A DNA stretch of 64,000 bases from Candidatus Dormiibacterota bacterium. GTDB lineage: Bacteria; Chloroflexota; Dormibacteria; Aeolococcales; Aeolococcaceae. Positions 6,550 through 25,855 of the stretch are shown here, piece after piece. Below the pieces are notes generated by a model that was not told where the DNA came from, did no database searches, and saw only the letters and a program-made list of their open reading frames with translations. Both the position numbers and the translations under genes were made by a program. The first letter of the stretch is position 1. Every line of letters begins with the position of its first letter. The stretch lies in contig CAVVVH010000006.1 in NCBI GenBank assembly GCA_963751755.1, positions 91,224 through 155,223 of the forward strand, written 5' to 3'.

Positions 6550-9500
6550 GTGCTGCGACGACTCGCCGGGACCGATGGCGCGCCATCCGCTGATGGTGCT
6601 GCTCATCGCGCTGTTGACGTGCGCGGGCCTGGCGACCGGCTTCGTTCGCTTCGGTGTCGATGCCGGCCAGTCGCTGCTGGTGGGCAGCAACTCATCGGCC
6701 GGCCAGGCCAACCAGAAGTTCACCACCGAGCTTTGGCACCGACCCCATCGTGGTGGTGCTGACCGCGGGCAATCCCACCGCTCCCTATCTCGAGAAGAAC
6801 CTGCAGCGCCTCACCGCGCTCGAGCAGGACCTCGCTCACGACCCCCGGGTGGCGCAGGTGCTCGGCCCCGGGACGGTGGCCAACTCTGCGCTGTCGGCGA
6901 CGACGGCGGAGGTGAGCAAGGTGCTCACCGAGTACCCGACCTTCGTCGCCGAGACCGCGTACCTCGCCGCCCGCCAGAAGGGTCAGAACGACGCCACGAC
7001 GCTGCAGAAGGAGTTCCAGACCAACGTCACCAACGCGCAGCAGCTGCTCGCGTCTGTTCGTCGCCCGCGCCGCCGCCGACGCGCACCAGGCTCGCCAGGC
7101 GTACGCGCAGAAGCCGATCCCAGCCGGCGACCGGATCCTCGACAGCCAGGAGAAGGCGGCCGAGGCGGCCGTGGTCAACGACGCGCTGCCGCCGCTCTTC
7201 GCCGAGTACCTCGCCGGGCCTGGCAACACCGCTGACACCGCGTCGCGCGCGCACGTTCTTCGACCGGCTCACCGCCGCGTTCGGGGACTGCGACAGCTCG
7301 ATCGCCCAGCTGCTGGGGATCAGCCCGACGTGTCAGATCTACCTGGCGCGCATCCTGCTCGACCTGCCCAACTGTCCCACCGAGGCAGCCGTGCAGGCCG
7401 CCGGAGCGCAGGGCAACGAGAGCTGTTCTGCTCGCCGAAGAGCGCGTGGGCCGCGGTCCTGCCCCCCCCGTCCACCAACGCCAACGCGCGCACATCGTCG
7501 CCCGCGAGGTCATCACCGTCAGGCTCACCGCCGCGGCCGCGGCGGATCGCACGTCGGTCCTCGCCGTCCGCCAGAAGATCAGCGACCAGCTGACCAGCGG
7601 CATCGCCACCGATGCGTTCACCAAGGGCTTCACCGCTGCGCAGCTGACCCAGCTCAAGCAACTCGGTCCGCTGGCACCGTCCGACTGCGGCGGCGCCACA
7701 CAGCAGCAGAACGCCAGCTGCTTCACCAAGTACCACGACCATCCCTTCCAGTTCATCATCGCCGGCGCGCCGCTGCTCACCTACGGCGTCGTCGACTCGA
7801 TGAGCGAGACGCTGCTCATCCTGCTGCCCGTGGTCATGGTGCTGATGGCCATCCTCCTGGTGGTGACCTTCCGCGTGCGCGGACGTCTGTGGCCGCTGCT
7901 CGCCGCTGCGGGCGCCACGGCCGCGACCGTCGGGCTCTCGCTGTGGGTGGGGATCCCGGTGACGCCGGCGGTGCTGGCGGGCGTGCCGGTGCTCGTCGGG
8001 CTCGCCGTCGACTACGCCGTGCAGCTCGTGGCCCGCTACGACGAGGCGCGGCGGCTCGGATCCGATCGCGAAGCCGCCATCCAGGAGGCGATGCTGCGCA
8101 GCGGGCCGGCGACGTTCACCGCCGCGGTGGCGACGCTGGCTGGATTCGGCACGCTGATGGTGTTCGCCGGCATCGACGCCGGACCACTGGTGGCGATCCC
8201 GCTGGTCGCCGAGTTCGCGCTGGTCCTGTTCGTCGGGGTCATCGTTTCGTGGCTGGCGGCGTTGTTCATCGCGCTGCCGGCCGCGGCGCTGTGGGGCCGC
8301 GATCGTCGACGCCCGCCTCGGCGCCGGCCGGCCCCGCGAAGGCGGAGCGCACCGTGGCGATCGCCTCGGCGTGGCGCGGCGCGGTGGTGCCGGCGGTGAT
8401 CGTCGCGCTCGTCGGGTGGGTGCTGCTGCCGCGCGTGCCCGTGCAGACCCAGGTGGACCAGCTGCTCGCCGCGTCGCTGCCCCAGCTGCAGGACGTCAAC
8501 ACCGTGCGCGACCAGACCGGCTACGGCAACGAGATCGACATCTACCTGCAGGGGCAGGTGGGCGGGCCGTACAACCAGCCGGGGACACCCGGCAACGTCA
8601 CCTGGCAGTGCGAGATCTCGCAGGGGATCCGCAGCCTGCACGCCGACCAGGTGGCGCTGGCCACGTCCATCGCTGACTTCTTCATCGCCGCGTCGTCGTC
8701 GGCGACGCCCTCGGTGAACGCGCCGTGCGTCGCAGCCCCGGCGGGCACGAGTGGCGGCACGACGCCCTCGCCGGGAGCCAGCGCGAGCCCAACCCCATCG
8801 GCGAGCGCGTCCGCGTCACCGTCGCCGTCCGCGAGCGCCGTCCGCCTCTGCCTCCGCGTCGCCCGCGAGCTTCCGCGACAGCAGCCCGCAGGTCTTCCTT
8901 GCCGCCACCGCTGTCGCCAGCCAGACCGCCGCCGCATCCGCGTCACCATCGGCGTCCACATCACCGTCGGCGAGCGCGTCCGCAAGCGGCACGCCGGCCC
9001 CGAGCACCGTCGCTCCTCGACAGACCAAGACGCAGACCTCCTTCCTCTGCGACCTCCGCCTGCTGCCGGCGCTGGCACGCAACCTCGTGCAGGACATCCC
9101 CACCAGCACGCAGCCCTGCCCGGCGATCGACAAGTACCTGAACAGCTGGCTCACCGCCGACACCACGCCGATCGACCCCACCTCCGCGCGCATCGTCGTC
9201 GGCGTGCAGAGCACCTCGATCGCGGATGAGGCGCGACTCATCGACAGCATCCGCAACGAGATCGCCAACCCGCCCAACGGGATGACGGCCGCGCCCGCCG
9301 GTATCGCCGCGCTGGCGGCGCAGGCATACGACAACATCGTCGCCCGCAGCCTCCTCCTCAACCTGCTGCCGCTGGTGGTGGTGTTCCTCGCGCTGCTCGC
9401 GATCGAGCGCAACCTGCGCCGCGCCGTCCTGCCGCTGCTCCCGACCGCGATCGCCGCGGGCTGGGCGCCGCTCATCCTGCTGCTGCTCGGGCTGCTCCCG

Positions 9501-10271
9501 GGCAACCTGGGCAAGACGCTGGGCTCGTTCAACCCGCTGACCGTCGTGCTCGGCGCGCTGGTGATCGCACTCGCCACGGAGTTCGGCGTGGTCCTGCTGC
9601 GCCGCTTCGACGAGGAGTGCGCCAAGGGGATGCACCCTGACGACGCCGCGGCGGCTGCACTCGCGGTCACCGGCAAGGCGATCCGGGTGTCCGCGCTCAC
9701 CCTCGGCGCGCGGCTTCGCGGTGCTGGCGGTGAGCGCGCTGTTCCCGCACGGCCTGCCGCTGCTCGGCGCCTTCGGCCTCACCGTGCTCATCGACCTCGG
9801 CCTGGCCGTGGCCGCGGTGTTCGGGATCATGCTGCCGGTGGCGGTGGCGATCGAGCGGGCGCGCTACGAGCCCGCGCGGGCGGCGGTCCAACCCGCGACC
9901 CCCTCGCCCGCACCCTCGGCGGCAGCGTCCCGGCGCCGTCCGGCCCCCCGAGGCAGAGGTGATCACCCAGCAGACGCCTGCAGCCACGCCGCGCCCCGAG
10001 ACCGAGGCGGACCGGCGCCGGCGTGGCACCTGCATCCACCACTCCCGCCTCGTCCAGCGCAGAGCCGGCCGCTGCTCCCAAGCCGGCGGGCGGAACCTAC
10101 CGTCGCCGCGGGGTGAGCGGCAGGCGCCGGCAGCCGGGCGGCGTCGACGAGATCCCCGCGGAGGAGACGCCGACGTCGCAAGCGGAGACGCCGAAGGCGG
10201 CCGCGCCGCCCCGGCGTCAGCGGGCGTCGCCGGCGCGGTCCCGCCAGGGCCCGCCGAAGGACGCCGGCTGA
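6550..10271 (+). CDS. MMPL/RND family transporter with large Cys-containing extracytoplasmic loops (frameshifted)
   Basis: RBS GGAGG at 6541; two TM blocks with VGLAVDYAVQLVARYDE and IALATEFGVVLLRRFDEE (RND TM4/TM10-type motifs); Ser/Ala/Pro linker; disordered C-tail. Confidence 0.82.
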
Positions 10272-10983: not shown

Positions 10984-11961
10984 GTGCTCGCCGTCCGACC
11001 CCTTTCGCAGGCCGCGGTCGACCCCGGGCTCCCCGAGCGCATCGACCGCCTTCGCCGCCGGCGCAACGCGGTGATCCTCGCCCACAACTACCAGCTGCCC
11101 GAGGTCCAGGACGTCGCCGACTTCGTCGGCGACTCGCTCGGCCTCTCCCAGGAGGCGGCGAGGACGGACGCCGACGTCATCGTCTTCTGCGGGGTCCACT
11201 TCATGGCCGAGACAGCGGCGATCCTCTCTCCGGACCGGACCGTCCTGCTGCCCGACCTGAAGGCGGGCTGCTCGCTCGCCGACACGATCACCGCCGACCA
11301 GCTGCGCGCGTGGAAGGCCGAGCACCCCGGCGCCGTGGTGGTGTCGTACGTCAACACCACCGCCGAGGTGAAGGCCGAGTCGGACTACTGCTGCACGTCG
11401 TCCAACGCGGCGGCGATCGTCAACAGCATCCCGGAGGACCGCGAGATCCTCTTCTGCCCCGACATGTTCCTCGGCGCCCACGTCGAGCGCGTCACCGGCC
11501 GGCGCATGCACATCTGGATGGGCGAGTGCCACGTGCACGCCGGCATCGACCCGGCGCACCTCGACGCCGCCCGCCGCGAGCACCCCGACGCCGAGCTGCT
11601 CATCCACCCGGAGTGCGGGTGCACCACGTCAACGCTGTACCGCTCGTCCTCGGGCGATCTGCCGGGCGCCACCACGGTGGTCTCGTCGACCGAGGGCATG
11701 GTGCGGCGCGCCGCCACGTCGCCGGCCTCGACGTTCATCGTCGCCACCGAGGTGGGCATCCTCCACCGCATGGAGAAGCTGGCCCCGAGCAAGCGCTTCC
11801 TGCCGGCGACGCCGGGCGCGGTCTGCCCCTTCATGAAGATGATCACGCTGCCCAAGGTGGAGGCGGCGCTGGAGACGCTGTCGCCGCGCGTCACCGTCGC
11901 GCCGGACATCGCGGCCAGGGCGCGCCGCGCCATCGACCGGATGCTCGCCGTCCCGGTCTGA
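10984..11961 (+). CDS. nadA: Quinolinate synthase A
   Basis: ILAHNYQ, FCGVHFMAETA, AGCSLA, GECHVH, HPEC, CPFMK; the three Fe-S Cys are present. Confidence 0.97.
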   Translation: MLAVRPLSQAAVDPGLPERIDRLRRRRNAVILAHNYQLPEVQDVADFVGDSLGLSQEAARTDADVIVFCGVHFMAETAAILSPDRTVLLPDLKAGCSLADTITADQLRAWKAEHPGAVVVSYVNTTAEVKAESDYCCTSSNAAAIVNSIPEDREILFCPDMFLGAHVERVTGRRMHIWMGECHVHAGIDPAHLDAARREHPDAELLIHPECGCTTSTLYRSSSGDLPGATTVVSSTEGMVRRAATSPASTFIVATEVGILHRMEKLAPSKRFLPATPGAVCPFMKMITLPKVEAALETLSPRVTVAPDIAARARRAIDRMLAVPV

Positions 11962-11993
11962 GCCGGACGGACGCCGCGGACACAGGGACGGCG

Positions 11994-13502
11994 ATGAGCG
12001 CGCCGCGTGTCCTGGCCATCGACCAGGGGACGTCGGGCACCACGTGCCTGGTGGTGGGGGTCGACGGCGAGGTCCACAGCCGAGCCCACGTCGAGGTCGC
12101 CGTCCGTTACCCGCGCGACGGCTGGGTCGAGCAGGACGCCGAGGAGCTGTGGCGGTCGGTGCTCGCAGCCGCACGCAGCGCGATCGACGCCGCCGGCGAG
12201 CCCGGCCCCGGTCGCCGTGGGGGTCACCAACCAGCGCGAGACCCTGGTGGTGTTCGAGCGCGACGGCATGCGGCCGGTGGCGCCCGCCATCGTGTGGCAG
12301 TGCCGGCGCAGCGCCGCGCTCTGCGCGGAGCATCGCGCGCGAGGCGAGGAGGATCAGCTCCGCAAGCGCACCGGCTTGCTGCTCGACCCGTACTTCACCG
12401 CCACCAAGCTGGAGTGGCTGCTCGCCGAGCAGCCCGAGCTGCGCGCGCGGGCGGAGCGCGGCGAGCTGTGCGCAGGCACCGTCGACACGTGGTTGATCGC
12501 GCGCCTGACGGGCGGTGCCGCGCTGGTGACGGACGCCAGCAACGCCAGCCGCACGCTGCTGTACGACCTCACGCGGGGCGAGTTCGACGACGGTCTGTGC
12601 GCGCAGTTCGGGGTGCCGCGGCAGCTGCTGCCGGAGGTGCGCGACAGTGCGGGCAGGGTCGCCATGACCGACCCCGCGTCGTTCCTCGGCCTGCGGCTGC
12701 CGGTGAGCGGCATCGCCGGCGACCAGCAGGCCGCGCTCTTCGGCCAGGCGTGCCTGCGCGCAGGGATGAGCAAGAACACCTACGGCACCGGGTCCTTCGT
12801 GCTCGTCAACACCGGGACCGCGGTGCCTGCGCCCGTGCACGGCCTGCTCGGCACCGTGGCCTGGCGACTCGGGGGCACCGACACGTTCGCGCTGGAGGGC
12901 AGCATCTTCGTCACCGGCGCGGGACTGAAGTGGCTGCGCGACGGGCTCGGGTTGATCACGGCCACGGACGAGGCGGGACCCCTGTTCGACTCCGTTCCTG
13001 ACAGCAATGGCTGTATCTTCGTGCCCGCGCTGTCGGGCCTGGGCGCGCCGTACTGGGACCCGGACGCGCGCGGCGCGCTGCTCGGCCTCACCGCCGGCGT
13101 GAACTCGCGCGCACGTGGTACGGGCGGTGGTCGAGGCGATGGCCTACCGCACCCGCGACGTCATCGAAGCAGTCGAACAGGGCGCAGGGATCGAGCTCGA
13201 GGAGCTGCGGGTCGACGGCGGCGCCAGCGTCATGGACGGCCTCTGCCAGTTCCAGGCGGACCTTCTCGGCCTCCCGGTGACCCGAGCGGCATCAGCCGAG
13301 ACCACCGCGCTGGGCGCAGCGATGCTGGCGGCAGTGGGGGAGGGCCTCATCGACATGCCCGACGGTGTCGAGGCAGGCCCACCAATCCGGCCGCCGCTTC
13401 GAACCAGCCACCCCAGGCCAACGCCCGCAAGCAGAATACGAAGCCTGGAAAAGAGCGGTAGCGCGCGTCCGAACCAACACAGAACGCCGCAAAGAAAGCT
13501 GA
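11994..13502 (+). CDS. glpK: Glycerol kinase (frameshifted)
   Basis: [82 protein letters not shown]. Confidence 0.93.
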
Positions 13503-13523
13503 GCATCCCAAAGGCACAAGGAC

Positions 13524-13682
13524 GTCGCGGAGGCGACAGCGGCGCGCGAGGCGCGCCGAAGAGTGGGGTGTGCAGGGTCGAATTCACTTCGACCCTGCGA
13601 GGGGCGAGGACCTGTTTCGCCCCTGAAAGAACGCATCGCATTCTTTGCCCCAGCCGCGCGAATGCGCGCCGGGGGCAAAGAA
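13524..13682. repeat. Tandem cluster of five GC-rich inverted repeats (REP/MITE-like or structured RNA)
   Basis: Stems at 13524-13537, 13541-13557, 13572-13598 (11 bp), 13600-13624 and 13641-13682 (11 bp). Confidence 0.55.
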
Positions 13683-13708
13683 AAGACCGGAGGGCGAACC
13701 CCCCGGCC
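13677..13708 (-). terminator. Rho-independent terminator
   Basis: GGCCGGGGGG-TTCG-CCCTCCGGTC followed by TTTTCTTT on the minus strand. Confidence 0.75.
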
Positions 13709-13757
13709 TTTCAGGAAGGGAATGAGTTTCCTGTTTGGGGGCGACTTTCGTCGCCGA
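13677..13757 (-). ncRNA. Candidate ~80-nt small regulatory RNA with three stem-loops
   Basis: Minus strand: -10 TAGATT (13768-13763); GGCGAC-GAAA-GTCGCC; CAGGAA-ACTCATTCCC-TTCCTG; intrinsic terminator with UUCG loop and U-tract. Confidence 0.6.
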
Positions 13758-13789
13758 CCACCAATCTATCGTCCGGCCCGCCGAAATGC

Positions 13790-13828
13790 AGTAAACGTCC
13801 GGTCAAGGTTTGTAAAGGGTTGTAAAGG
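13790..13828. promoter_or_regulatory. Tandem direct repeats, candidate OmpR/PhoB-family binding site
   Basis: GTAAAC 13791, GTCAAG 13802, GTAAAG 13812, GTAAAG 13822 (11/10/10 bp spacing); includes GTAAA-N5-GTAAA. Confidence 0.55.
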
Positions 13829-13895
13829 AGCAGCCAGCGGGCCCTCACCCCGTAATGACCCCCGGTCCGGTTGGCCTTGCGTATGCTCGGAACCC

Positions 13896-14479
13896 TTGCC
13901 GAAGGCAGCCCGCCACCCGATCCTCTACGACGTCGAGCGCTGGCGCAAGTACCGCACCTGGCTGCTCCTGCCGGCGACCGTCTTCGCCCTCACGGCGGTG
14001 TTCCTGACCGTGCTCAAGCCCACCTCGGGGGGCGCCTTCGGCTACGCGCTGATCGCCGCCTGCCTGTACGCCGTGGCCAGCTCGCTGTGGACCCGGCAGC
14101 ACTTCACCTACCTCTCCTGTGAGGACGACCAGCTGGTCGTCCACGCCCTGGCGGCGACCCGGCGCCTGGGCAGCGAGGACATCGATCGCGCCAAGCTGGT
14201 CCGCCTCAGCGCGGTCTTCCACCGCCCCGAGCGCCGCCGCCTGCTGCCCCGCCCGACGGAGCGCTGGCTGGCCACCGAGGCGATCTCGGTGCGCCTGCGC
14301 GACGGCGTCGACCTGCGCGCCCTGCGCCGCGTGGCCGGGCCGCGCTGCGTCGTCGACGACCTGCTGGTGGTGCCGGTCGTCGACGCCGGCGGGCTGTTCG
14401 CCGAGGTCAACAGCACGTCTGCCCACCGCGGCCGGTGGTGGCCGCCGCCGGGCAGCGACGCCGGGCCCGGCGCCGGTGA
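13896..14479 (+). CDS. Hypothetical membrane protein (two TMs plus a soluble, possibly PH-like, domain)
   Basis: TATGCT 13882-13887 then in-frame TTG; two hydrophobic helices; typical codon bias; end approximate. Confidence 0.6.
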
Positions 14480-16388
14480 CGCTGCGAGGACCGGCCCGCT
14501 GGTGGCGCGGACCGCGCCGTGCGCCGCGCGACCCGCGTGACGACGGCGGCGAACCGCTGGTGCGCGCCGGCCTGCGCGGCTTCCTCGCGCTCGAGCGCCG
14601 CGACGTCCTGGCCGTGGTCGCGCTGGTGGTGTTCTCACTGTTCCTGCGCTTCGCCAGCCCCATCCTGCCCGACTTCCTCTCCGGGAGCGGGGGCGTCAAC
14701 ATCTCCGGCGTCGGGGCGGCATCATCGAACAACAGCCCGCCGCCGGAGTGCACCGACGTGCCGGTCGGACCCGCGGGCAAGGACACCGCGGGCACGTCGG
14801 TCAATCACACCGACATCAAGCAGTGCGGGTTCATCTTCGACGAGATCTACTTCCCGGTCGACGCCGCCAAGGACCTCCGGCAGCCCGCCGAGTCGTACTT
14901 CGACCCCGAGCCACCGCTCGCCAAGCTGCTGATGGCGCCGCCGATCGCCACCATGGGTTTCACGACGTGGTCGTGGCGGGTGAGCACGGCGATCTTCGGC
15001 AGCCTGCTCGTCGGGATCATCTACCTGATCGCGCTGCGCCTGCGGCGTGACCGCTGGTTCGCCACCGCGGCGGCGCTCTTCGTCTCCCTGGACGGGCTCG
15101 CGTTCGTCGAGGCGCGCACTGGTGTCATCGACATCATCGCCATCTTCTTCGTCGCGCTCTTCTACTACGTGTTCCTGTTGCACTGGCAGGCCCGAACGCG
15201 GCGGCAGTGGCGCGCAACCCTGTACATCATGGCGCTGGTCGCCGGGCTTGCGTTCGCTGCCAAGCTCACCGCGCTGGCGCCGCTGGTGGTGGCGGCGGCG
15301 CTCCTTGCCGGCCGCGGGCTCTCACCGTGGCTGGCGGCCATCGTCCCGGCGGTGCGTCGCATCGCCGGACCGCGCCGGCACGAGGTGAACATGTGGCGCG
15401 CCGCGGCGGGCCGTTTCGCGCTGGTCCAGTACACGGTTGCCGTGCTCATCGGCGGTGCCGTGTTCTGCGCCTCGTTCTCTCGCTACCTGACGATCCCGCA
15501 CAACGACGTGTACAAGTTCACCGCCTGCAGTCCTGGCACCACGGGTCTCACCGGCACGGCGGACACCATCCAGGTGCCCACCATGAAGGTGGGCTCGGCG
15601 ACGGTGCCCAACCCCGTCCAGGCGGTCGCCGACATCGCCGACATCATGAGCGCGGGCCTGCAGTACCACGAGCAGGAGTGCCACAGCCATCCGTACGCGT
15701 CACGCTGGTACACCTGGCCGGTGATGTACCACCCCGTGCTCTTCTACTACGTGCAGACACCGTCGGCCGTCACCGACAACCCGACGGTCTCGTCGATCAC
15801 CGACATGGGCAACCCTGCCGTCTGGTGGCTCTCCATCCCTGCGCTGCTCGCGCTGGTGTGGCGGCTCAGCCGCGGCCCGCCGTGGTGGCGGCTGCTCGTC
15901 GGGTTGGTGGGCACGGTGTCGCTGGCCACCATGATCATCACGTTCCACGCCGCGCAGCAGCCCGACACCGTGAGCGTGCGCGTGTCGCCCGGCGTGCCGT
16001 TCACCGTGGCCTTCATCGGGGTGGTCGTCTTCGCTGCGCTGATCACCCTGAGCGCGGTGGTGTCGCGACGCTTCGTCCCGGCGTTCATCGTGCTCGGCTA
16101 CATCACGTCCTGGATGCTCTGGGTGGTGGGCAACGAACGCCGCGTGCTGTTCTTCTACCACGCGCTCGGCATGCTCATCTTCGCCGCGCTGGCGCTCGCC
16201 TACGTGCTCGCCGGTCTGCGCAACACCGTCGTGCAGCGTGCGCGGCCGGCAACTCTCGCTGGCGCCGGTGACCTGGGCCGCGACCGCTCCTGGTCGTGGC
16301 CGGTTTCGTCTTCTTCTACCCGGTCTGGACGGCGGTCCCGATGCCCAGCTCGGACCACCAGATGCGCCTCTGGGTCGACGCCTGGTGA
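14476..16388 (+). CDS. Protein O-mannosyltransferase (GT39/PMT family)
   Basis: FIFDEIYF, EPPLAKLL, WSWR, HPYASRWYTWP, MGNPAVWW, RVLFFYH, FFYPVWT C-terminus. Confidence 0.88.
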
Positions 16389-18587
16389 GCTCCGTCTGGC
16401 TGGCGGCGGCGGCTCTGCTGTTCGTCGCCGGCACCGTCACGGCAGGGTCGCTGCCGCGGGTGGACCTTCGCTTCGAGGAGCGCGTGCTGACCGGGATGGT
16501 CGTCACCGTGCTGGTGGGCAGCGCGGTCACCTACGTGGTCACTCTCGTCGCCGGTCTCGGCGTCGGCAGCGTGCTCGGCGGCCGCCGCGCTGACGGCGGC
16601 GGGGTTCGGGGCGCTGACGTGGCGCTCCCGGCACGCCGCCATGACGAGGTGGAGAGAGGAGTGGGGGCAGCTCATGTCACCCGACCAGCGCCGTCACCGC
16701 GTCGGTCTCGGCGCCGTCGCGGTGGCGGCGCTGCTCGTGTTCTCGTTGCTCTTCGCGCACACGCTCGGCACCGATGCCGACGGCAACCTCAACGCCGGCT
16801 TCCAGACGGTGTGGGCCGACTGGTCCCAGCACCTCACCACCATGAGCAGCTTCGCCGTCGCGCACAACCTGCCCCCGCAGAACCCGCTCTTCAGCGGCCA
16901 GGACCTCCGCTATCCCTTCCTTCCCGACTTCCAGTCGGCCACGCTGGTGACGCTCGGTGCCTCGCCGGCCGTCGCTCTCGCGCTGCCCGGCGCGCTGCTC
17001 GCGGTGTGCATCACGCTTCTGGTCGTGGCGCTCGCGGTGCGACTCGGAGCGGGCCTGGCGGTGGGTGCGCTCGCGGCTGCGATCTGCATGATCGGCGGCG
17101 GCCTGGGCTTCTCCGGCATCCTCGCCGACGCCTGCCTGCACCACGGCTTCAGCGCGGCGCAGTGCAGCTGGTCGGGGCTGGCCGCGCACCCCGGCGACAT
17201 CCCCGCGATCATCGCCGGCACCTTTCACGACCTGCCCGGCCTGGTGGCGGCGCAGCCGCGCGCCTACGACGGCCTGCTGACCACGGCCTCGACGCAGCCG
17301 CTGCCCAACCAGCAGTGGTACACGCCGCTGTTCGCCTGGTGGTTGCCGCAGCGCAGCATCCTCTACGGCTTCTCCGGCGCGCTGGTGGCCCTGGTCCTCC
17401 TCCTCGCCGCGGTGCGCACGCGGCGGCGCGGCTACGAGACGTTCGCGCTGGCAGGCCTGCTCTTGGGTCTCATGCCGCTCATCCACATCCACACGCTGAT
17501 CGCGATGGCCATCGTCGGCGCGGTGCTCGCCACCCAGTGGCGCCACCGCGGCTGGCTGGTGACGCTCGCGGTCGCCTGCGTGGTCGCCGCGCCGCGCCTG
17601 GTCACTCTGGTGGGCGGGCCCCATGGGTCGGCTGCGGACGCCAACCTGTTTCCCACCGTCGAACCGGGGTGGATGTACCTTCCCGGGGCAGCGCGGCCGG
17701 TGCTGTCGGTGACAGCGCTGGTGGGCGGCGTCGGCGGCTTGATCCGCGCGCTGCTGACGCCGCAGTACTGGGGCTTCTGGGTCGAGAACACCGGCGTCGC
17801 GGTGCCCCTGTGTGCGCTGGTGGCTGTCGCGCTGGCACTGGCGCGTGTGCCGGGTCGCACCGGTGCCGTCGCGCAGCGTGTCCGTGCGATGTTCGCGCCC
17901 GACCTGGTGCGCGTGGCCATGGCCTTCTGCGTGGTGTTCGTGGTCGCCAACCTCGTCGTCTTCCAGTCATGGGAGTGGGACAACACCAAGCTGTTCGCCT
18001 ACTGGTACCTCGGCGCCGCGTTGCTCCTCAGCACGCTGGTGGTGCGCTGGTGGCGGCGTTGGTGGCGGGGCGTCGCGGCCGCGGCCGTGGCCACCAGCGT
18101 GCTCCTCACCGGGCTGCTCGTGATGGCCCGGCTGCTGCCGTGGACGCCTGCGGTGGACGCCGTGGGCGGTCCGTACTCGACGGCGACCGCCGCTGACGTG
18201 CAGCTGGCGGCCACAGTCGCGGCGGCCACACCGTCCAACGCGGTCTTCCTCACCGAAGGCAAGCCCAACGACCCCGTGCTCACCCTGGCAGGGCGCACCG
18301 GCGTGATGGGCTACTACGGCTGGTTGTGGAGCTACGGAACCGATTTCGGGCAGCGCCCTCAGGACGTGCGCACCATGCTCGAGGGATGCCAGGCGCAGGC
18401 ACGCTCGGACTGCGCCGTCTTCGGCCTCCTGCGCACCTACCACGTGGCGTACGCTGAGATCGACGACAGGGTCACCGACGCCGGCATCTTCGACGCGCAG
18501 GTCGCCGTCGGTTGGTGGGCCCAGCAGGGATTCCCGGTGGTGGCTCGCAGCGACCACGTCACTGTGTACGACGTGCGCGGGACGTGA
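16385..18587 (+). CDS. Large polytopic membrane protein, probable GT-C glycosyltransferase (frameshifted)
   Basis: WADWSQH, PPQNPLFSG...YPFLPDF, WWLPQRS, WEWDNTK, AVFLT...LAGR..VMGY.GWLWSYG. Confidence 0.65.
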
Positions 18588-18626
18588 GCGTGTCTCACGA
18601 CTAGCGGTTCGGCGAGACTAGCCACG

Positions 18627-19795
18627 ATGCGATTGACACGGCGCACGGGCGTGACGAGCCTACTGCTCGTAGTTGTCCTGTCGGTGGCTCTGGGCCTGCG
18701 TCTGAACGGCTACACGTCCGACCCTGCGCCGGGGGCCAACTACGACGGGCTGGGCTGGGCGTGGCAGGGCCAGTCGCTGATCCTCCAGCACGTGCCCCAC
18801 GCGTGGTCCTGGCAGACCAGTTATCACCCCTCGAGCTTCGTGACTGAACCCAACGGCATTCACCTTCCCCTCGTGTCGCCCTACTTCGACCATCCGCCGC
18901 TCTTTGGCCTCCTGGTCGGCGGATCAGCGGTGATTGCCGGCGAGCAGACGCAGGCGAGCGTGACGGAGGGGGTCATCCGCCTGGTGCCTATCGCGCTCTC
19001 CTTGGTAACCATCGTGCTCCTCTACGTCCTTGTCCGCCGGGTCACTGGCAAGGACTGGATCGCGTTGATGGCGGCGGCAGCGTTCGCTGTCTCTCCTGCG
19101 ATGGTGCTCACTGGCAGGCTGGTGGAGAGTGAAGCGCTTCTCACACCCCTGCTTCTCGCAGCCGTGATCCTCGCACTGCGCGTTCGTGATGGGGCGGGGC
19201 GACGGTACATCGCCGGGCTGGTCCTGGTCTGCCTGATCTCACCGCTCGTGAAAGAGCCAGGGGTCATCGTCGCCGTCGTGGCCTCCGCCATTCTGCTCAC
19301 CTCGTCGAGGCGGCGCCTGTGGGCACTCCCTTTGGTCGGCATGACCTTCGGCGTCGGCTTGTACCTCGTCTATGCCGCGTCCCTCGACTGGAGTCTGTTC
19401 ATCGCCACGGCTCTAGCGGAAGGCAAGGACCGCCATCCATCCGTCGCGGGCTTCTCCAACTACTTCATCAGCAGCGACGCCGGGCTGGGTATCCGTGTAC
19501 CGTGACCGACCCGGTGTGGTACGCCGGGTGGGTTGCGCTCAGCTATCTCGGTGCAAGAAGCCGGGCGTGGCGTCCGTTGGCGCTGGCTGCAGTCGTCTAC
19601 GCTGCGCTCATCGTCTCGTCAGCCTCGGGTGAGTGGATGCGATGGATCGGCTGGTATCGGATACCCGACGAGCCGTTTCTCTATGCCGCGGCGGCTGGGC
19701 TGTGCGCGGAAGTCCTGCACAGTGCATGGATACGGCTGGGTCCCATGAGCTCCGGGGGGCGCGATGGTGGGCTGGCACCACACTCGATAGCCTGA
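18627..19795 (+). CDS. ArnT/GT39-like GT-C glycosyltransferase (frameshifted, atypical codon usage)
   Basis: YFDHPPLFGLL, RLVPIALS, RLVESE, VKEPG; multiple TMs. Confidence 0.7.
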
Positions 19796-19898
19796 TGATC
19801 CCTCGCGCCCTCGGAGCGGCGACGGCAGGTGCCACCCCAGCATCGGCGTCATCGATGGCGTTCGGCCACGTCGTCTTCGCCGCGGGAGGATGGGTGGG

Positions 19899-20729
19899 AT
19901 GATCATCGACGCCCACGTCCACATCCTCCCCGACCGGGTTCGCGACAACCTCGTCGAGGTGGCCGCGAGTGACCCGTGGTTCGCCACCTGCCACGCGCGC
20001 GGTGAGCGAACCGCCTCGGCGGAGTCGCTGCTGGCGGCGATGGACGAGCACGGCGTGGATCGCGCGGTGTGCTTCGGCTGGCCGTTTGCCGATGCCGCGA
20101 CGTGCGCCGAGGCGAACGACTACGTGGCGGCCGCGGTGCGCCGTCATCCCGACCGGCTGGTGGGATTCGGCATCGTCCAGCCACTCCACCCCGGCGCTGC
20201 AGCCGAGGTGACGCGGTGCGCACGACTGGGCCTGGCCGGGATCGGCGAGATGAACGCCGACGCCCAGGGCTGGGAGCTCCTCGACGAGGCGGTGCAGCCT
20301 GTGGTCCGGGCCTGCGTCGACGCCGGGATGCCCTGGAACCTGCACTGCAGCGAGCCGGTCGGGCGCCAGTACCCGGGACGGGGATCGTCGACCCCGGACC
20401 GGGTCATGGCGTTCGCCGAGCGCAACGCCGAGCTGACGCTCATCTGCGCTCACCTCGGCGGCGGGCTGCCGCTGTACGCGCACATCCCCGAGGTGCGCCG
20501 CGCCTGCGAGCGGCTCCACTTCGACACCGCCGCGCAGCCCTTCGTGTACGAGGCCTCGGTGTACCGCGCGCTGGTCGACGGTGTCGGCGCAGAGCGCGTT
20601 CTCCTGGGCAGCGACCACCCTCTCCTCGACGTGCCGCGGTACAGCGCGGCGCTGAGCGAGGCGGGCGTCAGCGAGGCGGCGCGAGCGCTCATCACCGGTG
20701 GCAACGCGGCCCGGCTCCTCCACCTCTGA
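19899..20729 (+). CDS. Amidohydrolase_2 family metal-dependent hydrolase
   Basis: IIDAHVH, GIGE, LHCSEPVG..YPG, AHLGGG, FDTAA, GSDHP. Confidence 0.9.
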   Translation: MIIDAHVHILPDRVRDNLVEVAASDPWFATCHARGERTASAESLLAAMDEHGVDRAVCFGWPFADAATCAEANDYVAAAVRRHPDRLVGFGIVQPLHPGAAAEVTRCARLGLAGIGEMNADAQGWELLDEAVQPVVRACVDAGMPWNLHCSEPVGRQYPGRGSSTPDRVMAFAERNAELTLICAHLGGGLPLYAHIPEVRRACERLHFDTAAQPFVYEASVYRALVDGVGAERVLLGSDHPLLDVPRYSAALSEAGVSEAARALITGGNAARLLHL

Positions 20730-20898
20730 GTGGGTGGTGGCCGTCGTCACCATCCCGTCGCCGGTTGGTGGATCGGTTCGTTGTCGCGGTGGCCGCAGAG
20801 TCAGCGGCGGCGGAGTGTCCGGCGCCCGCCAGCCGGACGCTCTGCTTTTTCTTTGCCCAGGGACGCGCAGCCGGGCTGCCGCTAGGCACACTTGGGGT

Positions 20899-22174
20899 GT
20901 GTTCACGCCTGAGACCCTCGAGGTCGCCATGGTCTCGTTCGAAGGGCCTGACCAGTACAGCCAGGCCGGCGGGCTCGGGGTTCGCGCCAAGGAGATGTGC
21001 CGCGCGTTCGCCGCCTTGGGCTTCGCCACCACGCTGTACTTCGTCGGCGACCCGGACAGGCCTCACGACGAGGTCGTCGACGGCCTGCGGCTGGTGCGCA
21101 TCTGCCAGTCGGTGAGCGCCGCGCACCCGGCCGGTGTGTACGACGGCGAGCACGCCAAGATCGAGGCGATGTGGCAGGAGCTGCCCGCCCTGCTCGTCGA
21201 GACGTCGGTGCGCCGCTGCCGCGGCGGCCGGCAGGACGCTCGCCATCCTCTGCGAGGAGTGGCAGACCGCCGACTTCGTCGAGATGCTCGACCGCCATCT
21301 TCGCCAGCTCGGCATGCGCGACCGCTGCGTCATCCTCTGGAACGCCAACAACCACTTCGGCTTCGACAACATGGACTGGCGCGCGCTGGACCGCGCCGCG
21401 ACGGTGACCACCGTGAGCCGCTACATGAAGCACCTGATGTGGCCGCACGGGGTCAACCCGATGGTCATCCCCAACGGCATCCCGGTCGAGTCGCTGCAGC
21501 CCGTCGACCCCGCCGGCGTCGCGCTCATCGCCGAGGCCGCGGGCACACCGTGCCTCACCTTCAAGATCGGCCGCTTCAGCCCCGACAAGCGATGGCACCA
21601 GAGCCTCGACGCCATCGCCGAGCTGCGCGCGCACGGCCTGCCCGCGCGCCTGCTGATGCGCGGCGGCATCGAGCACTTCGGCCACGGCGTGCTCGGCCAC
21701 GCCCGCCAGCTCGGGCTGCCGGTCACCGACTGGAACGAGCCCATCGAGGGGCCGCGGGACATCGCCCGCTCGCTGGTGGAGACGGGCGCCGCGGCGGTGG
21801 TCAACCTGCGCCGCTTCCTCCCCGAGTCCGTGCTCCCGGCGATCTCCGCGGCGTCGACCGCGGTGCTCGCCAACTCCGGCCACGAGCCCTTCGGGCTGGT
21901 CGGCCTGGAGGCGATGGCGGCCGGCGGCGTCGCGGTGGTCGGCGCCACCGGCGAGGAGTACGCGCGCCCGTACGGCAACGCCATCGTCGTCGAGACCGCC
22001 GAGGGCACCGAGCTGGCCAGCGCGCTCGCCGGGCTCGTGGAGCGCCCCGAGCTCTCCACGCGCTTGCGCGAGGCGGCCCGCCGCGACGCCGCCGACTTCG
22101 TGTGGCCGGAGATCATCGACGGCTTCCTCGAGCGGATGCGCTACGTGGCGGCGCGGCAGCATGTCGCGGTCTGA
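20899..22174 (+). CDS. GT4 family glycosyltransferase (frameshifted)
   Basis: SFEGPDQYSQAGGLG, TTVSRYMK, IPNGI, GRFSPDK, HEPFGLVGLEAMAAG. Confidence 0.87.
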
Positions 22175-22207
22175 CCCCGCTGCGCGACGGGCTCGCCGGC
22201 GATCGAG

Positions 22208-22643
22208 GTGCGGGAGGTCGAGCTGGCCGACATCACCGACCTGCGCGGCGCGCGTGCTGCGCAGCCACATGCCCGGCGCGCCGGCCACCGCGCCGAGCGA
22301 CGGCAACGCCGACGTCGTTGCACCTCGGCGCCTTCCGCGACGGCCGGCTGGTGGGGGTGGTCACGGCCTTCGCTGAGGAGGCACCGGGCAACCCGCGGGT
22401 GGCCGGCCGCAGCGCTTCCGCTTCATGGCCGTGGAGCCGTCGGAGCAGGGCACCGGAGCGGGCACGGCGCTCATGCGCGAGCTGATGGCGCGGGCCCGCG
22501 CGCGCGGCGCCCGCCTGCTCTGGGCGCACGGCCGCGACAGCGCGCTGGACTTCTACGCCAGGCTCGACTTCGCCGTCGTCGGCGAGGGCTTCGACGACCC
22601 CACCTCCCACCTGCCCCACCACGTCGTCGTCCGCGAGCTGTGA
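22208..22643 (+). CDS. GNAT N-acetyltransferase (frameshifted)
   Basis: HLGAFRDGRLVGV, MAVEPSEQGTGAG, LWAHGR..ALDFYARLDF. Confidence 0.8.
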
Positions 22644-22690
22644 GGCCGCGTCCGGGCTCGTCTACCGCGACCAGCGGATAGGATGCGACC

Positions 22691-22846
22691 GTGGACGAGC
22701 GCCGGCTGACCGCGATCGCAGGCGAGCTCGGCCTCACCGTGGACGAGCTGCGCGAGGCGCAGGCGGGGCTGTCGCCCGGGCTTCCGGACGCCATCCTCGG
22801 CGGCCTGATCCGCTTCGAGGACGCGCTGTTCGAGCTCTCGCAGTGA
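22691..22846 (+). CDS. 51-aa protein, putative antitoxin-like partner of the downstream Doc-like protein
   Basis: MDERRLTAIAGELGLTVDELREAQAGLSPGLPDAILGGLIRFEDALFELSQ; TAGGAT-N6-GTG start; GTGA overlap with the next gene; below the ORF-track length cutoff. Confidence 0.6.
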   Translation: MDERRLTAIAGELGLTVDELREAQAGLSPGLPDAILGGLIRFEDALFELSQ

Positions 22847-23217
22847 CCGCGCCGCTGCAGGCCGGCGACGTGGCCTTCATCCACCGCGTCGCCGCGAGCC
22901 GGTTCGCCGGGGGCGACGCCGGGCACCGTTGATCGAGCTGCCGTCGACGACGCGGTGGCCGCCGCCGCCGAGGGCACCGCGTTCGTCCGCGCGGCCACGC
23001 TCGCCGCCGTGCTGCTGCAGCGCCGCGCGTTCAGCACCGCGCCGCTGCAGACCGCCCTGCTCGTCCTGCACTGCGCGACTGAGCCTCGACGGCTTCAGCC
23101 TGGTGGCCCCGCAGGGGGTGCTCGCGGGGATGATCCGCAGCCTGGCGAAGGACGGCGACGCGGCCGAGCGTGGCTCGCTGGCTGGAGGATCGCGCCGTGC
23201 CCGCCGCCTCGGGCTGA
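22843..23217 (+). CDS. Doc/Fic-fold protein with degenerate catalytic motif (frameshifted)
   Basis: VAFIHR...FVRAATLAAVLLQRRAFSTAPLQTALLVL...LDGFSL...ARWLEDR follows the Doc pattern, but HPFxDGNKR is replaced by RAFSTAPLQ. Confidence 0.6.
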
Positions 23218-23298
23218 GGCCGGCCGCGCCGGCCGTCGCGGCCGGCCTGGCGCCCGGTCGTGCGCTCGCGGACATGGCCCGTATGATGGGCAGCGACA

Positions 23299-25852
23299 AT
23301 GAACTCGTCGCTCGGCCGGCTCGGGCATCAAGGCGGTGGTCATGGCCGGCGGAGAGGGCTCGCGCCTCCGTCCGCTCACCAGCCAGTACCCCAAGCCGCT
23401 CGTCCCGGTGGCCGGGACCCCGGTCATCGAGCACATCCTCCGGCTGCTGCGCGACCACGGCATCACCCAGGTGATCCTCACCCTGCAGTACCTGGGCGCC
23501 GAGATCCGCAACCGCCTCGGCGACGGCTCCGACCTCGACATGGAGATCGAGTACGTCGTCGAGGACCGCCCGCTGGGCACGGCGGGGAGCGTCCGCAACG
23601 CCGCCCACCTGCTCGACGACACCTTCCTGGTCATCAGCGGCGACGCCCTCACCGACATCGACCTCACCTGGGTGCATCGCCGAGCACCGGCGGCGCCAGA
23701 GCCACGCCAGCATCGTGCTCAAGAGCGTGCCCAACCCGCTCGAGTACGGCGTGGTGGTCACCGAGGCCGACGGCAGGGTGCAACCGCTTCCTCGAGAAGC
23801 CGTCGTGGGGCGAGGTGTTCAGCGACCACGCCAACACCGGCATCTACGTCATCGAGCCGTCCGTGCTGGAGCACATCGAGCCCGACGTCGTCCGTCGACT
23901 GGTCGCAGGACGTCTTCCCGCGGATGCTGCGCCGCAAGGAGCCGCTCTACGGGATCGTCGCCGAGGGCTACTGGTGCGACATCGGCTCCATCCAGTCGTA
24001 CATGCAGGCCAACTGGGACGCGCTCGAGGGCCACGTGCGCTGCCACATCCCGGGTCGCCGCGAGGGCAACGTCTGGATCGGCGACGGCGTCGAGTTCGGC
24101 ATCGGCGTGCAGCTCGAGGGCCCGGCGTTCATCGGCGACGAGGTCAAGCTCAAGGCGGGCGCCTTCATCAACGGCCACGCCGTCATCGACAAGTACGCGA
24201 TCATCGACGACAACGCCAAGGTCTCCAACACGGTGATCTGGCCGCACTCCTACATCGGCGAGAACTGCCGCCTGCGCCAGAGCATCGTCTGCCGCAACGT
24301 CACCATCAAGAACGGCAGCCTGCTCGAGGAGAACACCGTCATCGGTGACGACTGCGTCATCGGGCACGGGTCGCGGATCCGCTCCGGGCGTGAAGATCTG
24401 GCCGCACAAGGAGGTGGAGCCCGGCTCGACCGTCAACGAGTCGGTGATCTGGGCGGGCGAGTGGCGCCGCGGCCTCTTCTCCTCCTACGGCATGGGCGGC
24501 CTCATCAACGTCGAGCTCACCCCCGAGTTCTGCGCGCGGCTGGGCGCCGCGTTCGCCGCCACCCTGCCGCGCAGCGCCACCATCGCGGTGGCCCGCGACC
24601 ACGCGCGCAGCTCGCGGATGATCAAGCGGGCCATGGTCTCCGGCCTGATCAGCGCCGGCGCCACCGTGCGCGACCTCAACGAGCTGCCGGTGCCGATCAC
24701 GCAGTTCGCCACCCGCGGCGGCCACTGCGACGCCGGCGTCCACGTGCTCGTGTCGCCGCTCGACCAGCGCAGCGCCGACATCCGCTTCTTCGACGGCGAC
24801 GGCCTGCAGATCGACAAGCGCGCCGAGCGCAAGTTCGAGAACCTCTTCTTCCGCGAGGACTTCCGGCGCGCCGCCTTCTACGAGATGGGCGACATCGAGC
24901 ACGTCGACCCGCACGGCGACTACTGCCGGCACCTGATGGACAGCGTCGACGCCGCCGCCATCCGCGCGGCCGGCTTCCGCGTGCTCATCGACTACGACTA
25001 CAGCCAGGCGTCGACGGTGCTGCCCGGCATCCTCGACGACCTCGGCGTCACCGCCATCCCGCTCAACGCCGGGCTCAACGAGCAGCCCCACCACCAGCGC
25101 GTCCCCGACGAGACCGCGCTGGTCAGCCGCACCGTCAACGCCGACGTCGGCTGCATGATCAGCCCCACCGCGCGAGCGCATCACCTTCATCGACGACGAG
25201 GGCACGGTGATGACGCCGTACGAGACGTTCGGCATCCTGGTCACGCTGGTGGATGAAGACCCACCCCGGCATCGTGCTGGCGCCGGCGAGCACACCGCAG
25301 TGGATCGCCTCGCTGGTCGAGGAGGCCGGCGGCACGTTCACGCCGACGCCGGGCGAGGCGTCGGCCGTGCTGCGCGCCTCCGCCGCGCCGAGCACGTGCC
25401 TCGCCGCCGACGGCGAGGGCGGCTTCATCTGGCCGTACTTCTTCGGCGCCTACGACGCCATGTACACGCTGGTCAAGCTGCTCGAGATGCGCGCCGTGTT
25501 CCAGGTGCCGCTGAGCGAGATGCGCCGCGCAGCTGCCGCGTGTCGACGTACATCACCGCCACGGAGTTCTGCCCGTGGGAGGCCAAGGGAAAGGTGATGC
25601 GCCGCCTCCTCGAGGACCACGACGGGCGCGAGGTGGACCTCGTCGACGGCCTCAAGGTGTTCGTCGACGGCGGCTTCGTGCTGGTGCGCCCCGACCCCGA
25701 CGAGCCCGCGTACCACGTGGTCGCCAGCGTCGACGACGAGGCGACCGGCAGGCGCCTGGTCGCCGAGTACCTCGACCGGGTCCGCGCCGCGCAGGGGTCG
25801 AACGGGCACGGCGGCAGCTGGTGGCGGTGCTGGAGACGTCCCGACCACCTGA
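23299..25852 (+). CDS. Mannose-1-phosphate guanylyltransferase/phosphomannomutase-like fusion (frameshifted)
   Basis: [48 protein letters not shown], hexapeptide repeats, KIWPHK, PGM-like domains, [11 protein letters not shown]. Confidence 0.9.
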
Positions 25853-25855
25853 GGC

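Follow-up and report, generated by a model that had tools for sequence, protein, structure and literature searches.

A candidate family of small regulatory RNAs beside a protein O-mannosyltransferase operon in uncultured Dormibacteria

The 64,000-nt stretch of DNA analyzed here (the window; positions 91,224 to 155,223 of contig CAVVVH010000006.1, assembly GCA_963751755.1) stems from a metagenome-assembled genome (MAG; our genome G000, 1.83 Mb in 9 contigs, 53% complete) of a Candidatus Dormiibacterota bacterium. Dormibacterota are uncultured and abundant in permafrost, peat, and desert soils. Between a glpK-like gene and the operon geneA-pmt, in which pmt encodes a protein O-mannosyltransferase, we found an element on the minus strand that is very probably a real, previously undescribed regulatory RNA gene of ~80 nt conserved in uncultured soil bacteria. 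An earlier reading of this DNA, made from the sequence alone (the sequence-only reading), had proposed a trans-acting small RNA (sRNA) at this site. A minus-strand, trans-acting sRNA gene of this kind is also the best explanation of the results reported below, with a probability of roughly 0.7. A full-text literature search combining Dormibacterota or Dormibacteraeota with sRNA or small RNA returned no paper, and the element would be the first sRNA family proposed for the uncultured Dormibacteria lineage, with comparative support that is unusually good. The sRNA family is new, whereas its type of mechanism is already well known.

Structure and conservation of the element

The minus-strand features named in the sequence-only reading, i.e., a -10 box, a 5′ hairpin with a GAAA loop, a middle hairpin, a terminator with a UUCG loop, and a U-tract, were all present in the sequence (Table 1). 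The minus orientation was favored by two results. The 92-nt RNA of this strand folded with -42.5 kcal/mol (z = -4.02), which was reached by none of 200 shuffled sequences, compared to -36.1 kcal/mol (z = -1.94; 10 of 200 shuffles) for the plus-strand RNA, and a terminator scan reported the site on the minus strand only. The hairpin loops of the window RNA are GAAA and UUCG, and it contains a single C/U-rich stretch, CAUUCCCUUCCU.

In a DNA search of 41 genomes, the element was detected in 16 of the 18 genomes of the window's genus and in four of six other genera of the same family, where only the 3′ half (seed and terminator) matched, with 79 to 93% identity; it was not found in the 16 genomes of a second family. 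An exact-pattern scan with CTCATTCCCTTCCT(0-2)GAAAGRCCGG across one genome per prokaryote species yielded 75 stretches, and a core of 24 to 26 nt was letter-identical in these 75 species genomes. According to the record titles, 56 of the 75 belonged to Candidatus Dormiibacterota, Dormibacteraeota, or Dormibacteria and one more to Candidatus Amunia, while seven were named Chloroflexi, Chloroflexota, or Chloroflexia and six carried other names. After removal of duplicates, 78 distinct loci were available, 77 of them without N. Three genomes (G012, G015, and G020; rows L003, L017, L020, and L173) are flagged as unpublished, and no statement made here depends on them.

In the alignment of the 77 sequences, GAA(A/G)CUCAUUCCCUUCCU..GAAAG was invariant, and this unpaired seed lies between covarying helices. 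The terminator occurred in 19 sequence variants, each of which folded into 9 to 11 bp; 98.9% of its cells were paired, and compensatory changes were found in 9 of its 10 pairs. Its sense strand was more stable than the antisense strand in 69 of 77 sequences, and the T-tract was located on this strand in all of them. When the 64 distinct forms of the 5′ region (66 loci) were folded singly, nearly all formed one hairpin of ~4 to 8 bp; the six modelled pairs of this hairpin all showed compensatory changes, with 82 to 85% of the cells paired. A model-guided alignment of 93 sequences gave 93.2% paired cells compared to 75.7% in shuffles, compensatory changes in 15 of 16 pairs, and a covariation score of 0.432, compared to 0.145 in shuffles (reached by none of 500) and 0.02 to 0.12 with slid partners. 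It counts against these figures that the alignment was fitted to the model, so that its pair counts lean towards structure, and the single-sequence folds of terminators and 5′ regions serve as the independent check. One terminator pair was G·U in 66 and G-C in 22 of the 93 sequences; the G·U pair fits a minus-strand RNA only, because the opposite strand would have a C·A mismatch here. For homologs next to glpK and pmt, the sequence-only reading had expected an invariant "loop" sequence along with compensatory changes in the stems, as was observed.

The proposal that the seed is presented by a hairpin loop held for the window, where the middle hairpin is present, but not beyond its genus. The 3′ arm of this hairpin lies inside the invariant stretch, and the 5′ arm CAGGAA occurred only in the window's genus; elsewhere, its position is taken by UGUGAA, UUCGAA, UUUGAA, UGAAA, CGAAA, and similar sequences, leaving the 23-nt stretch unpaired in most species. 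An invariant core between variable hairpins is typical of a seed-type sRNA.

With a covariance model, R1, the sRNA of the window was scored with 93.3 bits. Of the 34 genomes of family f1 (families and genera are given by our own numbers), 23 gave strong matches (64 to 99 bits), and weaker ones (28 to 42 bits) came from 10 of the 11 family f5 genomes and from a few genomes of families f3 and f4. Genomes of genus g18 contained second to fourth matches, with two to four per genome. Twenty of the weaker matches were inspected. Most carried ACUCAUUCCCUUCCUGA, or ACUCAAUCCCUUCCUU in family f5, combined with a quite different terminator and 5′ sequence; two (L113 and L115) were nothing more than terminators behind a gene, and another two or three were doubtful. 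The sibling and family f5 copies retain ACUCA(U/A)UCCCUUCCU, and the siblings have the same seed, other terminators and upstream regions, and a location elsewhere in the genome. Among 151 sampled genomes of the phylum, all matches fell inside the same class, with none in the ~135 genomes outside it. The confinement of the matches to one class and the existence of sibling copies indicate a class-restricted sRNA family with siblings, which is a candidate for a new Rfam family; R1 separates the orthologues cleanly.

Table 1. Features of the sRNA locus and its neighbors in the window
Feature	Position	Strand	Comment
Predicted sRNA transcript, ~80 nt	13677..13757	-	Ends inferred: 5′ end (13758-13755) from the -10 box, 3′ end from the U-tract
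5′ hairpin GGCGAC-GAAA-GUCGCC	13740..13755 (13755-13740)	-	Sequence variable, structure kept
Middle hairpin CAGGAA (13733-13728)/UUCCUG (13717-13712), loop ACUCAUUCCC	13733-13712	-	Weak; partly encloses the invariant stretch
Invariant stretch GAAACUCAUUCCCUUCCUGAAAG	13708..13730	-	Seed core CUCAUUCCCUUCCU at 13726-13713
Intrinsic terminator GGCCGGGGGG-UUCG-CCCUCCGGUC	13708-13685	-	Stem 13708-13699/13694-13685; loop UUCG
U-tract UUUUCUUU	13684-13677	-	Terminator end; terminator plus U-tract 13677..13708
Four direct TTnACA-type hexamers	13790..13826	-	TTTACA 13826-13821, TTTACA 13816-13811, TTGACC 13806-13801, TTTACT 13795-13790
-10 box TAGATT (TAnnnT class)	13763..13768	-	21 nt downstream of last hexamer
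nadA	10984-11961	+	Pfam
glpK-like FGGY kinase, convergent neighbor	12007..13461 and neighboring frames	+	Pfam; three frames in this assembly
geneA, divergent neighbor, ~212 amino acids	13902..14540	+	No Pfam family; start codon uncertain; pmt always next
pmt, GT39 protein O-mannosyltransferase	14119..16593	+	Mechanical open reading frame; Pfam PMT, PMT_2, PMT_4TMC

Promoter, genomic position and known RNA families

Upstream of the -10 box, four direct hexamers follow one another at distances of 10, 10, and 11 bp (starts 13826, 13816, 13806, and 13795). They stand in place of a -35 box: none was found 16 to 18 nt from TAGATT, and a promoter scan reported no sigma-70 -35/-10 pair. A TAnnnT motif 21 to 22 nt after the fourth hexamer was detected by script in 66 of 77 loci (TACAGT in 44, TAGATT in 9, TACATT in 7, and others), and in the remaining 11 loci TATCGT, TACAGT, TAAGGT, TAGAGT, TATGGT, or TAATGT was read by eye at the same position. 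The array TTgACA-N4-TTTACA-N4-TTnnnn-N5-TTTACT was kept column by column across 66 aligned promoters and was also present in the distant family f5, with different spacer sequences. Promoters activated by response regulators of the OmpR/PhoB type usually have helically phased direct repeats where a -35 box would otherwise be. The phased hexamers and the lack of a -35 box therefore suggest activation of this type, and by analogy we infer that the hexamers may be the binding array of a winged-helix activator.

The position of the element relative to its neighbors differed between families. In family f1 it is divergent from geneA-pmt or from pmt alone and convergent with glpK or nadA, whereas the order in family f5 is glpK(+), sRNA(+), a weak geneA homologue(+), and pmt(+), i.e., the module is inverted relative to f1. 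An in-place inversion in which promoter, seed, and terminator are kept indicates an independent transcription unit rather than an antisense RNA or a leader. With its own promoter, its own terminator, and an intergenic position, the locus is highly likely to be an independent sRNA gene. In this respect, the comparison with relatives supports the idea of an independent minus-strand gene with an invariant C/U-rich pairing stretch, from which the sequence-only reading had started.

That reading had also been unable to assign the element to a known family and had suggested an Rfam scan. At gathering score, the scan of the whole window found no family except one tRNA. A permissive scan (E ≤ 10) of positions 13300 to 14000 gave nine matches at chance level, among which RsaE and 6C were absent. 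The only sRNA family placed over the seed was mmgR/suhB of Alphaproteobacteria (RF00519), with 18.1 bits and E = 0.41 compared to a gathering score of 41. In this match, a C/U-rich motif (UUCCUCCCU in the model, UUCCCUUCCU here) and the terminator following it are aligned, but nothing else is, and the phylum is unrelated; the resemblance is one of design and not of homology.

Several known sRNAs are similar in design. The 6C sRNA carries two hairpin loops with C-runs, and OmrA/OmrB of enterobacteria are OmpR-activated, Hfq-dependent sibling sRNAs that repress several envelope proteins via a conserved seed at the 5′ end. With OmrA/OmrB, the element would share the response-regulator boxes, the siblings, and the exported targets proposed below, but it would differ in seed position and Hfq dependence and shows no sequence relation. 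Like 6C of Actinobacteria, it would be a chaperone-independent sRNA of high-GC bacteria with a C-rich single-stranded pairing region; unlike 6C, it has GAAA and UUCG loops and a single mixed C/U stretch, unpaired in the majority of clades, it gave no match to the Rfam 6C model, and it was restricted to Dormibacteria among the genomes searched. 6C is described in PMC6486639 as binding several mRNAs via C-rich single-stranded loops without an RNA chaperone, with protein secretion genes among the targets. For RsaE/RoxS of Firmicutes, PMC4409812 describes unpaired C-rich regions bearing UCCC that pair with G-rich Shine-Dalgarno sequences and a transcriptional activation by a two-component response regulator (ResD or SrrA) via a conserved upstream site. 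The element resembles RsaE/RoxS as a short, presumably Hfq-independent and trans-acting sRNA with an intrinsic terminator, an unpaired C-rich pairing region, and probable response-regulator activation. It differs from RsaE by the lack of a sequence or structure match, the phylum, one long C/U-rich stretch instead of several unpaired C-rich (UCCC) regions, an upstream array of four phased TTnACA hexamers, and a predicted regulon of exported proteins rather than of central or redox metabolism. By analogy, the chaperone-independent C-rich sRNAs RsaE/RoxS and 6C appear to be the closest mechanistic parallels.

Predicted mode of action, candidate targets and competing explanations

In the mode of action that we propose, a response regulator of the OmpR/PhoB type would activate the promoter without a -35 box, giving an RNA of ~80 nt that consists of a structural 5′ hairpin, the mostly unpaired, 23-nt C/U-rich stretch GAAACUCAUUCCCUUCCUGAAAG, and the intrinsic terminator. 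The sRNA would act in trans and without Hfq, the latter of which was found in none of 31 genomes, while control genomes gave matches. Its segment UCCCUUCCU(G), with or without the preceding CUCAU, would pair with Shine-Dalgarno/start regions that are purine rich and follow the pattern (C)AGGAAGGGA(N)UG, and would thereby block ribosome binding. The complement of the seed, (C)AGGAAGGGAAUGAG, is a purine-rich, Shine-Dalgarno-like block leading into a start codon, and we consider it fairly probable that the sRNA pairs with ribosome-binding sites. Its computationally predicted targets are mainly mRNAs of exported or surface proteins bearing signal peptides. That such proteins form the main regulon is a tentative prediction, with odds somewhat short of even.

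Targets were scored in the genome of the window for 11,405 start candidates of 1,203 gene-like open reading frames (ORFs), for which the GC content of the first codon position (GC1) had to exceed that of the second (GC2). A first target list had used third-position GC alone and included at least one antisense "shadow" ORF (L124), and the list was therefore redone with the GC1 > GC2 requirement. The share of signal-peptide-like N-termini, as recognized by a home-made hydrophobicity rule, was 0.16 overall and rose with the pairing energy to 0.27 at ≤-16 (n = 212), 0.39 at ≤-20 (n = 28), and 0.75 at ≤-22 (n = 8), whereas with a canonical anti-Shine-Dalgarno control it stayed at 0.13 to 0.15. At the gene level, the share was 0.5 for the top 10 and 0.4 for the top 20, compared to 0.14 for 40 shuffled seeds, none of which reached the observed values. 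The best targets were large or small exported proteins without Pfam families, and a Pfam search with the predicted targets L117 to L121 and L123 gave no family.

In five other genomes of family f1, the 10-mer CAGGAAGGGA occurred 60 times, compared to 14 times for the reversed control. Fifty-two of the f1 sites were new and not recognized as sRNA genes, although one of them (L231) turned out on later inspection to be antisense to a sibling. Thirteen of these 52 sites were placed as ribosome-binding sites, and 11 of the 13 preceded signal-peptide or membrane N-termini. For one predicted target, orthologues were present in 9 of 41 genomes, and a GGAAGG(G)A block preceded the start in all 10 start regions examined.

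The 14-mer complement of the seed was sought with at most one mismatch in 81 genomes of the family. A common variant, AGGAAGGGGATGAG, was rejected as a target, as it appeared, judging by two copies in the window's genome, to lie antisense to a LIPFL motif in coding sequence. Fifteen further sites comprised six starts of signal-peptide genes, four same-sense coding sites (LNPFL or LIPFL), two sibling-like sRNAs, and three unclear cases. The best non-self complement, with 15 contiguous pairs of CCUUUCAGGAAGGGA against UCCCUUCCUGAAAGG, was located at G000:C4:386884-386923 (L122, ~1484-1524, minus strand), ~120 nt upstream of a DUF1015 gene and off its ribosome-binding site, and was kept at G016:C1:153153. 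It could be a target in a 5′ untranslated region, a sponge, or another small RNA.

Some sequence features of these sites and proteins were recorded in addition. The predicted targets L118 (G000:C3:269622-271412) and L123 (G000:C1:107636-110314) end in a C-terminal hydrophobic segment followed by RRRRR, e.g., PEVPLSLLLPLAGAGVIVAVGIRRRRRG, a tail that resembles a C-terminal sorting or anchor signal in its sequence. Another predicted target, the small protein L206, has many K, P, and T repeats, a composition also seen in O-glycosylated linkers. In two genomes of genus g18, a non-coding-looking stretch, CCCCCUGCCGGUCAGGAAGGGAUAGGGAGAGUUUCAAA, is identical in L227 (G121:C1:1053353-1053682) and L237 (G104:C1:2422278-2422607) and carries the seed complement.

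Several observations weigh against a trans-acting sRNA with an exported-protein regulon. At the top 30 and top 50, 3 and 2 of the 40 shuffled seeds, respectively, reached the observed value. Nine of the 11 exported-protein sites came from one genome (G073), and G016, which belongs to the window's genus, has none. Family f2, in which the sRNA was not detected, had the 10-mer as often per Mb as f1 (49 occurrences versus 23 of the reversed control); among 20 sites inspected in two f2 genomes, three were placed as ribosome-binding sites and none of the three preceded an exported protein. The target tests suggest an exported-protein regulon and are rough, with a home-made rule for signal peptides, guessed start codons, and incomplete genomes such as that of the window. 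Regarding the putative activator, the array of the sRNA was the only four-hexamer array (≥17/20) in the 1.83 Mb of this genome, no response-regulator gene was present within positions 1 to 30000 of the window, and neither a cognate regulator nor further boxed regulon members were found; only five two-hexamer sites were found in the genome, and these were unrelated and uninformative. None of 20 sequencing runs retrieved in a search contained half of the element's words. Four of them were labelled as RNA, three of these labels being flagged as a guess and two of these three runs probably being DNA, and their contigs are without strand information; the one true metatranscriptome (X19) gave two poor contigs away from the element.

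The length of the invariant stretch also leads to a different explanation, in which the RNA would bind or titrate a protein, or serve as a sponge or decoy, and the stretch would be a protein recognition site. With 23 nt, flanked by GAAA and GAAAG, it exceeds the 7 to 12 nt of typical seeds, so that protein binding could be involved; the siblings retain the whole ACUCAUUCCCUUCCUGA block, and the complementary 10-mer is equally frequent in families with and without the sRNA. Nevertheless, we regard this explanation as unlikely, because complementary sites were enriched at the starts of one functional class of genes, which was not the case for shuffled seeds or the anti-Shine-Dalgarno control, and because the motif is present once per RNA, whereas known titrating RNAs contain it in numerous repeats. 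A candidate for the binding protein was not found. A function in cis would have to differ between families, as an antisense RNA to read-through or leader transcripts of geneA-pmt in f1-like loci or as a terminator-containing leader or attenuator in f5. The place between glpK or nadA and geneA-pmt is indeed kept across the class, and in f5 the element, which shares the strand of geneA and has a terminator at its end, precedes this gene by ~80 nt. In one f1 clade the start codon of pmt lies within the first hexamer, TTGACAT, which means that pmt transcription must begin within or beyond the sRNA gene. However, no single cis mechanism fits both f1 and f5, since the module is inverted between them with its sequence, promoter, and terminator kept; in addition, siblings with the same seed are located elsewhere in the genome, no Rfam riboswitch or leader family matched, and no complementarity to the seed was seen by eye at the starts of geneA or pmt. 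Regulation in cis thus appears quite improbable.

It is still harder to see the locus as a block acting at the DNA level without a stable RNA, composed of a bidirectional glpK terminator and operator sites of pmt. On the plus strand, an A-tract precedes the hairpin and a short T-run (TTTC) follows it, which could end glpK transcripts, and the hexamers do lie in the upstream region of pmt. The invariant 23 nt between covarying hairpins, the -10 box at a fixed distance, the one-strand G·U pairs, and the siblings would all be left unexplained, and in f5 the hexamers are not adjacent to pmt, making such a block very unlikely. Finally, a coding function of the plus strand was considered, in which AGGAAGGGA would be a Shine-Dalgarno sequence and translation from the ATG at 13722-13724 would give either a small peptide or a geneA product extended at its N-terminus. 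The absence of an ORF claimed in the sequence-only reading is not literally correct, as a mechanical plus-strand ORF (13563..14540) crosses the element, and the ATG of the window is in frame with it; the third-position GC, however, stays at the non-coding level until ~13860 and places the coding start near this position. The ORF following the ATG is only 3 to 38 codons long in 72 of 78 loci, nothing is conserved past MSF, which falls within the invariant nucleotides, and the purine block abuts the ATG without a spacer. The coding reading was rejected on account of the short ORFs and the missing conservation, its probability being close to nil.

For the trans-acting sRNA, the conserved location of the gene beside the geneA-pmt operon across the class suggests a circuit of secretome and envelope, which would tune the synthesis of the secretome to the status of the envelope or of glycosylation. 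In its widest form, class-wide Hfq-free sibling sRNAs under a response regulator would be a post-transcriptional brake on the secretome of Dormibacteria, acting under stress of the envelope or the mannosylation machinery (geneA-pmt) by occluding a ribosome-binding site of the AGGAAGGGA type that many exported surface proteins, probably O-glycosylated ones, would have in common. We regard this wide version as doubtful. If true, the circuit would be the first based on a regulatory RNA to be described for this uncultured lineage, and a Gram-positive-type counterpart of the sigmaE/OmpR envelope sRNAs. A conserved sRNA with a recognizable seed, siblings, and an activator box offers an entry point to gene regulation in Dormibacterota, yields a testable exported-protein regulon and a probe for metatranscriptomes, and would add a case of chaperone-independent, C/U-rich anti-Shine-Dalgarno sRNAs beyond Firmicutes and Actinobacteria.

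Gene neighborhood and other elements of the region

Pfam searches and a third-position GC plot gave the gene order nadA, glpK-like, the element on the opposite strand, geneA, pmt, and further glycosylation genes on the plus strand. The true start of pmt is probably near 14500, as judged from a frame change in third-position GC near 14450-14540. Beyond pmt, a 648-amino-acid protein without a Pfam family, a PMT_2-family protein, an amidohydrolase, a GT1 glycosyltransferase, and a phosphomannomutase are encoded (window 14119-26184, pmt included). Mce/MlaD and MMPL genes lie upstream, and the whole region is envelope related. Several genes are split over two to three frames, i.e., glpK (11310-13825), MMPL (7446-9959), and phosphomannomutase (24345-26184); in the case of glpK, the FGGY_N and FGGY_C domains are spread over the ORFs 11310-13001, 12007-13461, and 13115-13825. 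These splits are either indel errors of the assembly or a sign of many pseudogenes, and single-base details of this MAG therefore need caution.

The geneA product has the motif RHPILYDVERWRKYR at its N-terminal end, and a membrane segment is predicted in it. The gene is located directly upstream of pmt in f5 and in all inspected f1 loci that have it (it is missing in clade 2). The f1 and f5 proteins share 22% identity with E = 7e-4 (window 13902-14540, plus strand, versus L200:1665-2297), i.e., they are weak homologues. The geneA protein may be a partner of the O-mannosyltransferase.

Two further hairpin-containing elements adjoin the sRNA gene. A GC-rich hairpin, GCCCCCGGCGCGCAUUCGCGCGGCUGGGGC, lies at 13647-13676 (minus strand), between the U-tract of the sRNA and a dispersed repeat, with T-runs before and A-runs after it on both strands. 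As this hairpin is missing from most related loci, it is an insertion specific to one or few species. A conserved hairpin element beside the terminator was rejected as a part of the sRNA, since it proved to be the dispersed repeat, a sequence of ~100 nt at 13520-13625 that, read on the minus strand, comprises two hairpins and a C-rich tail and has no Rfam match. Its hairpins, GGGGCG..CGCCCC and GCAGGGUCGAA..UUCGACCCUGC, appear to covary between loci. Further copies are located at G000:C6:11831-12113 (three in tandem), C6:179671-179786, C3:216490-216600, C3:72870-72969, and C5:37153-37363, i.e., at least nine copies are present in the half-complete genome. At most loci of the genus, the repeat immediately follows the terminator of the sRNA, and within the sequencing runs compared the contig depth was highest at the repeat.

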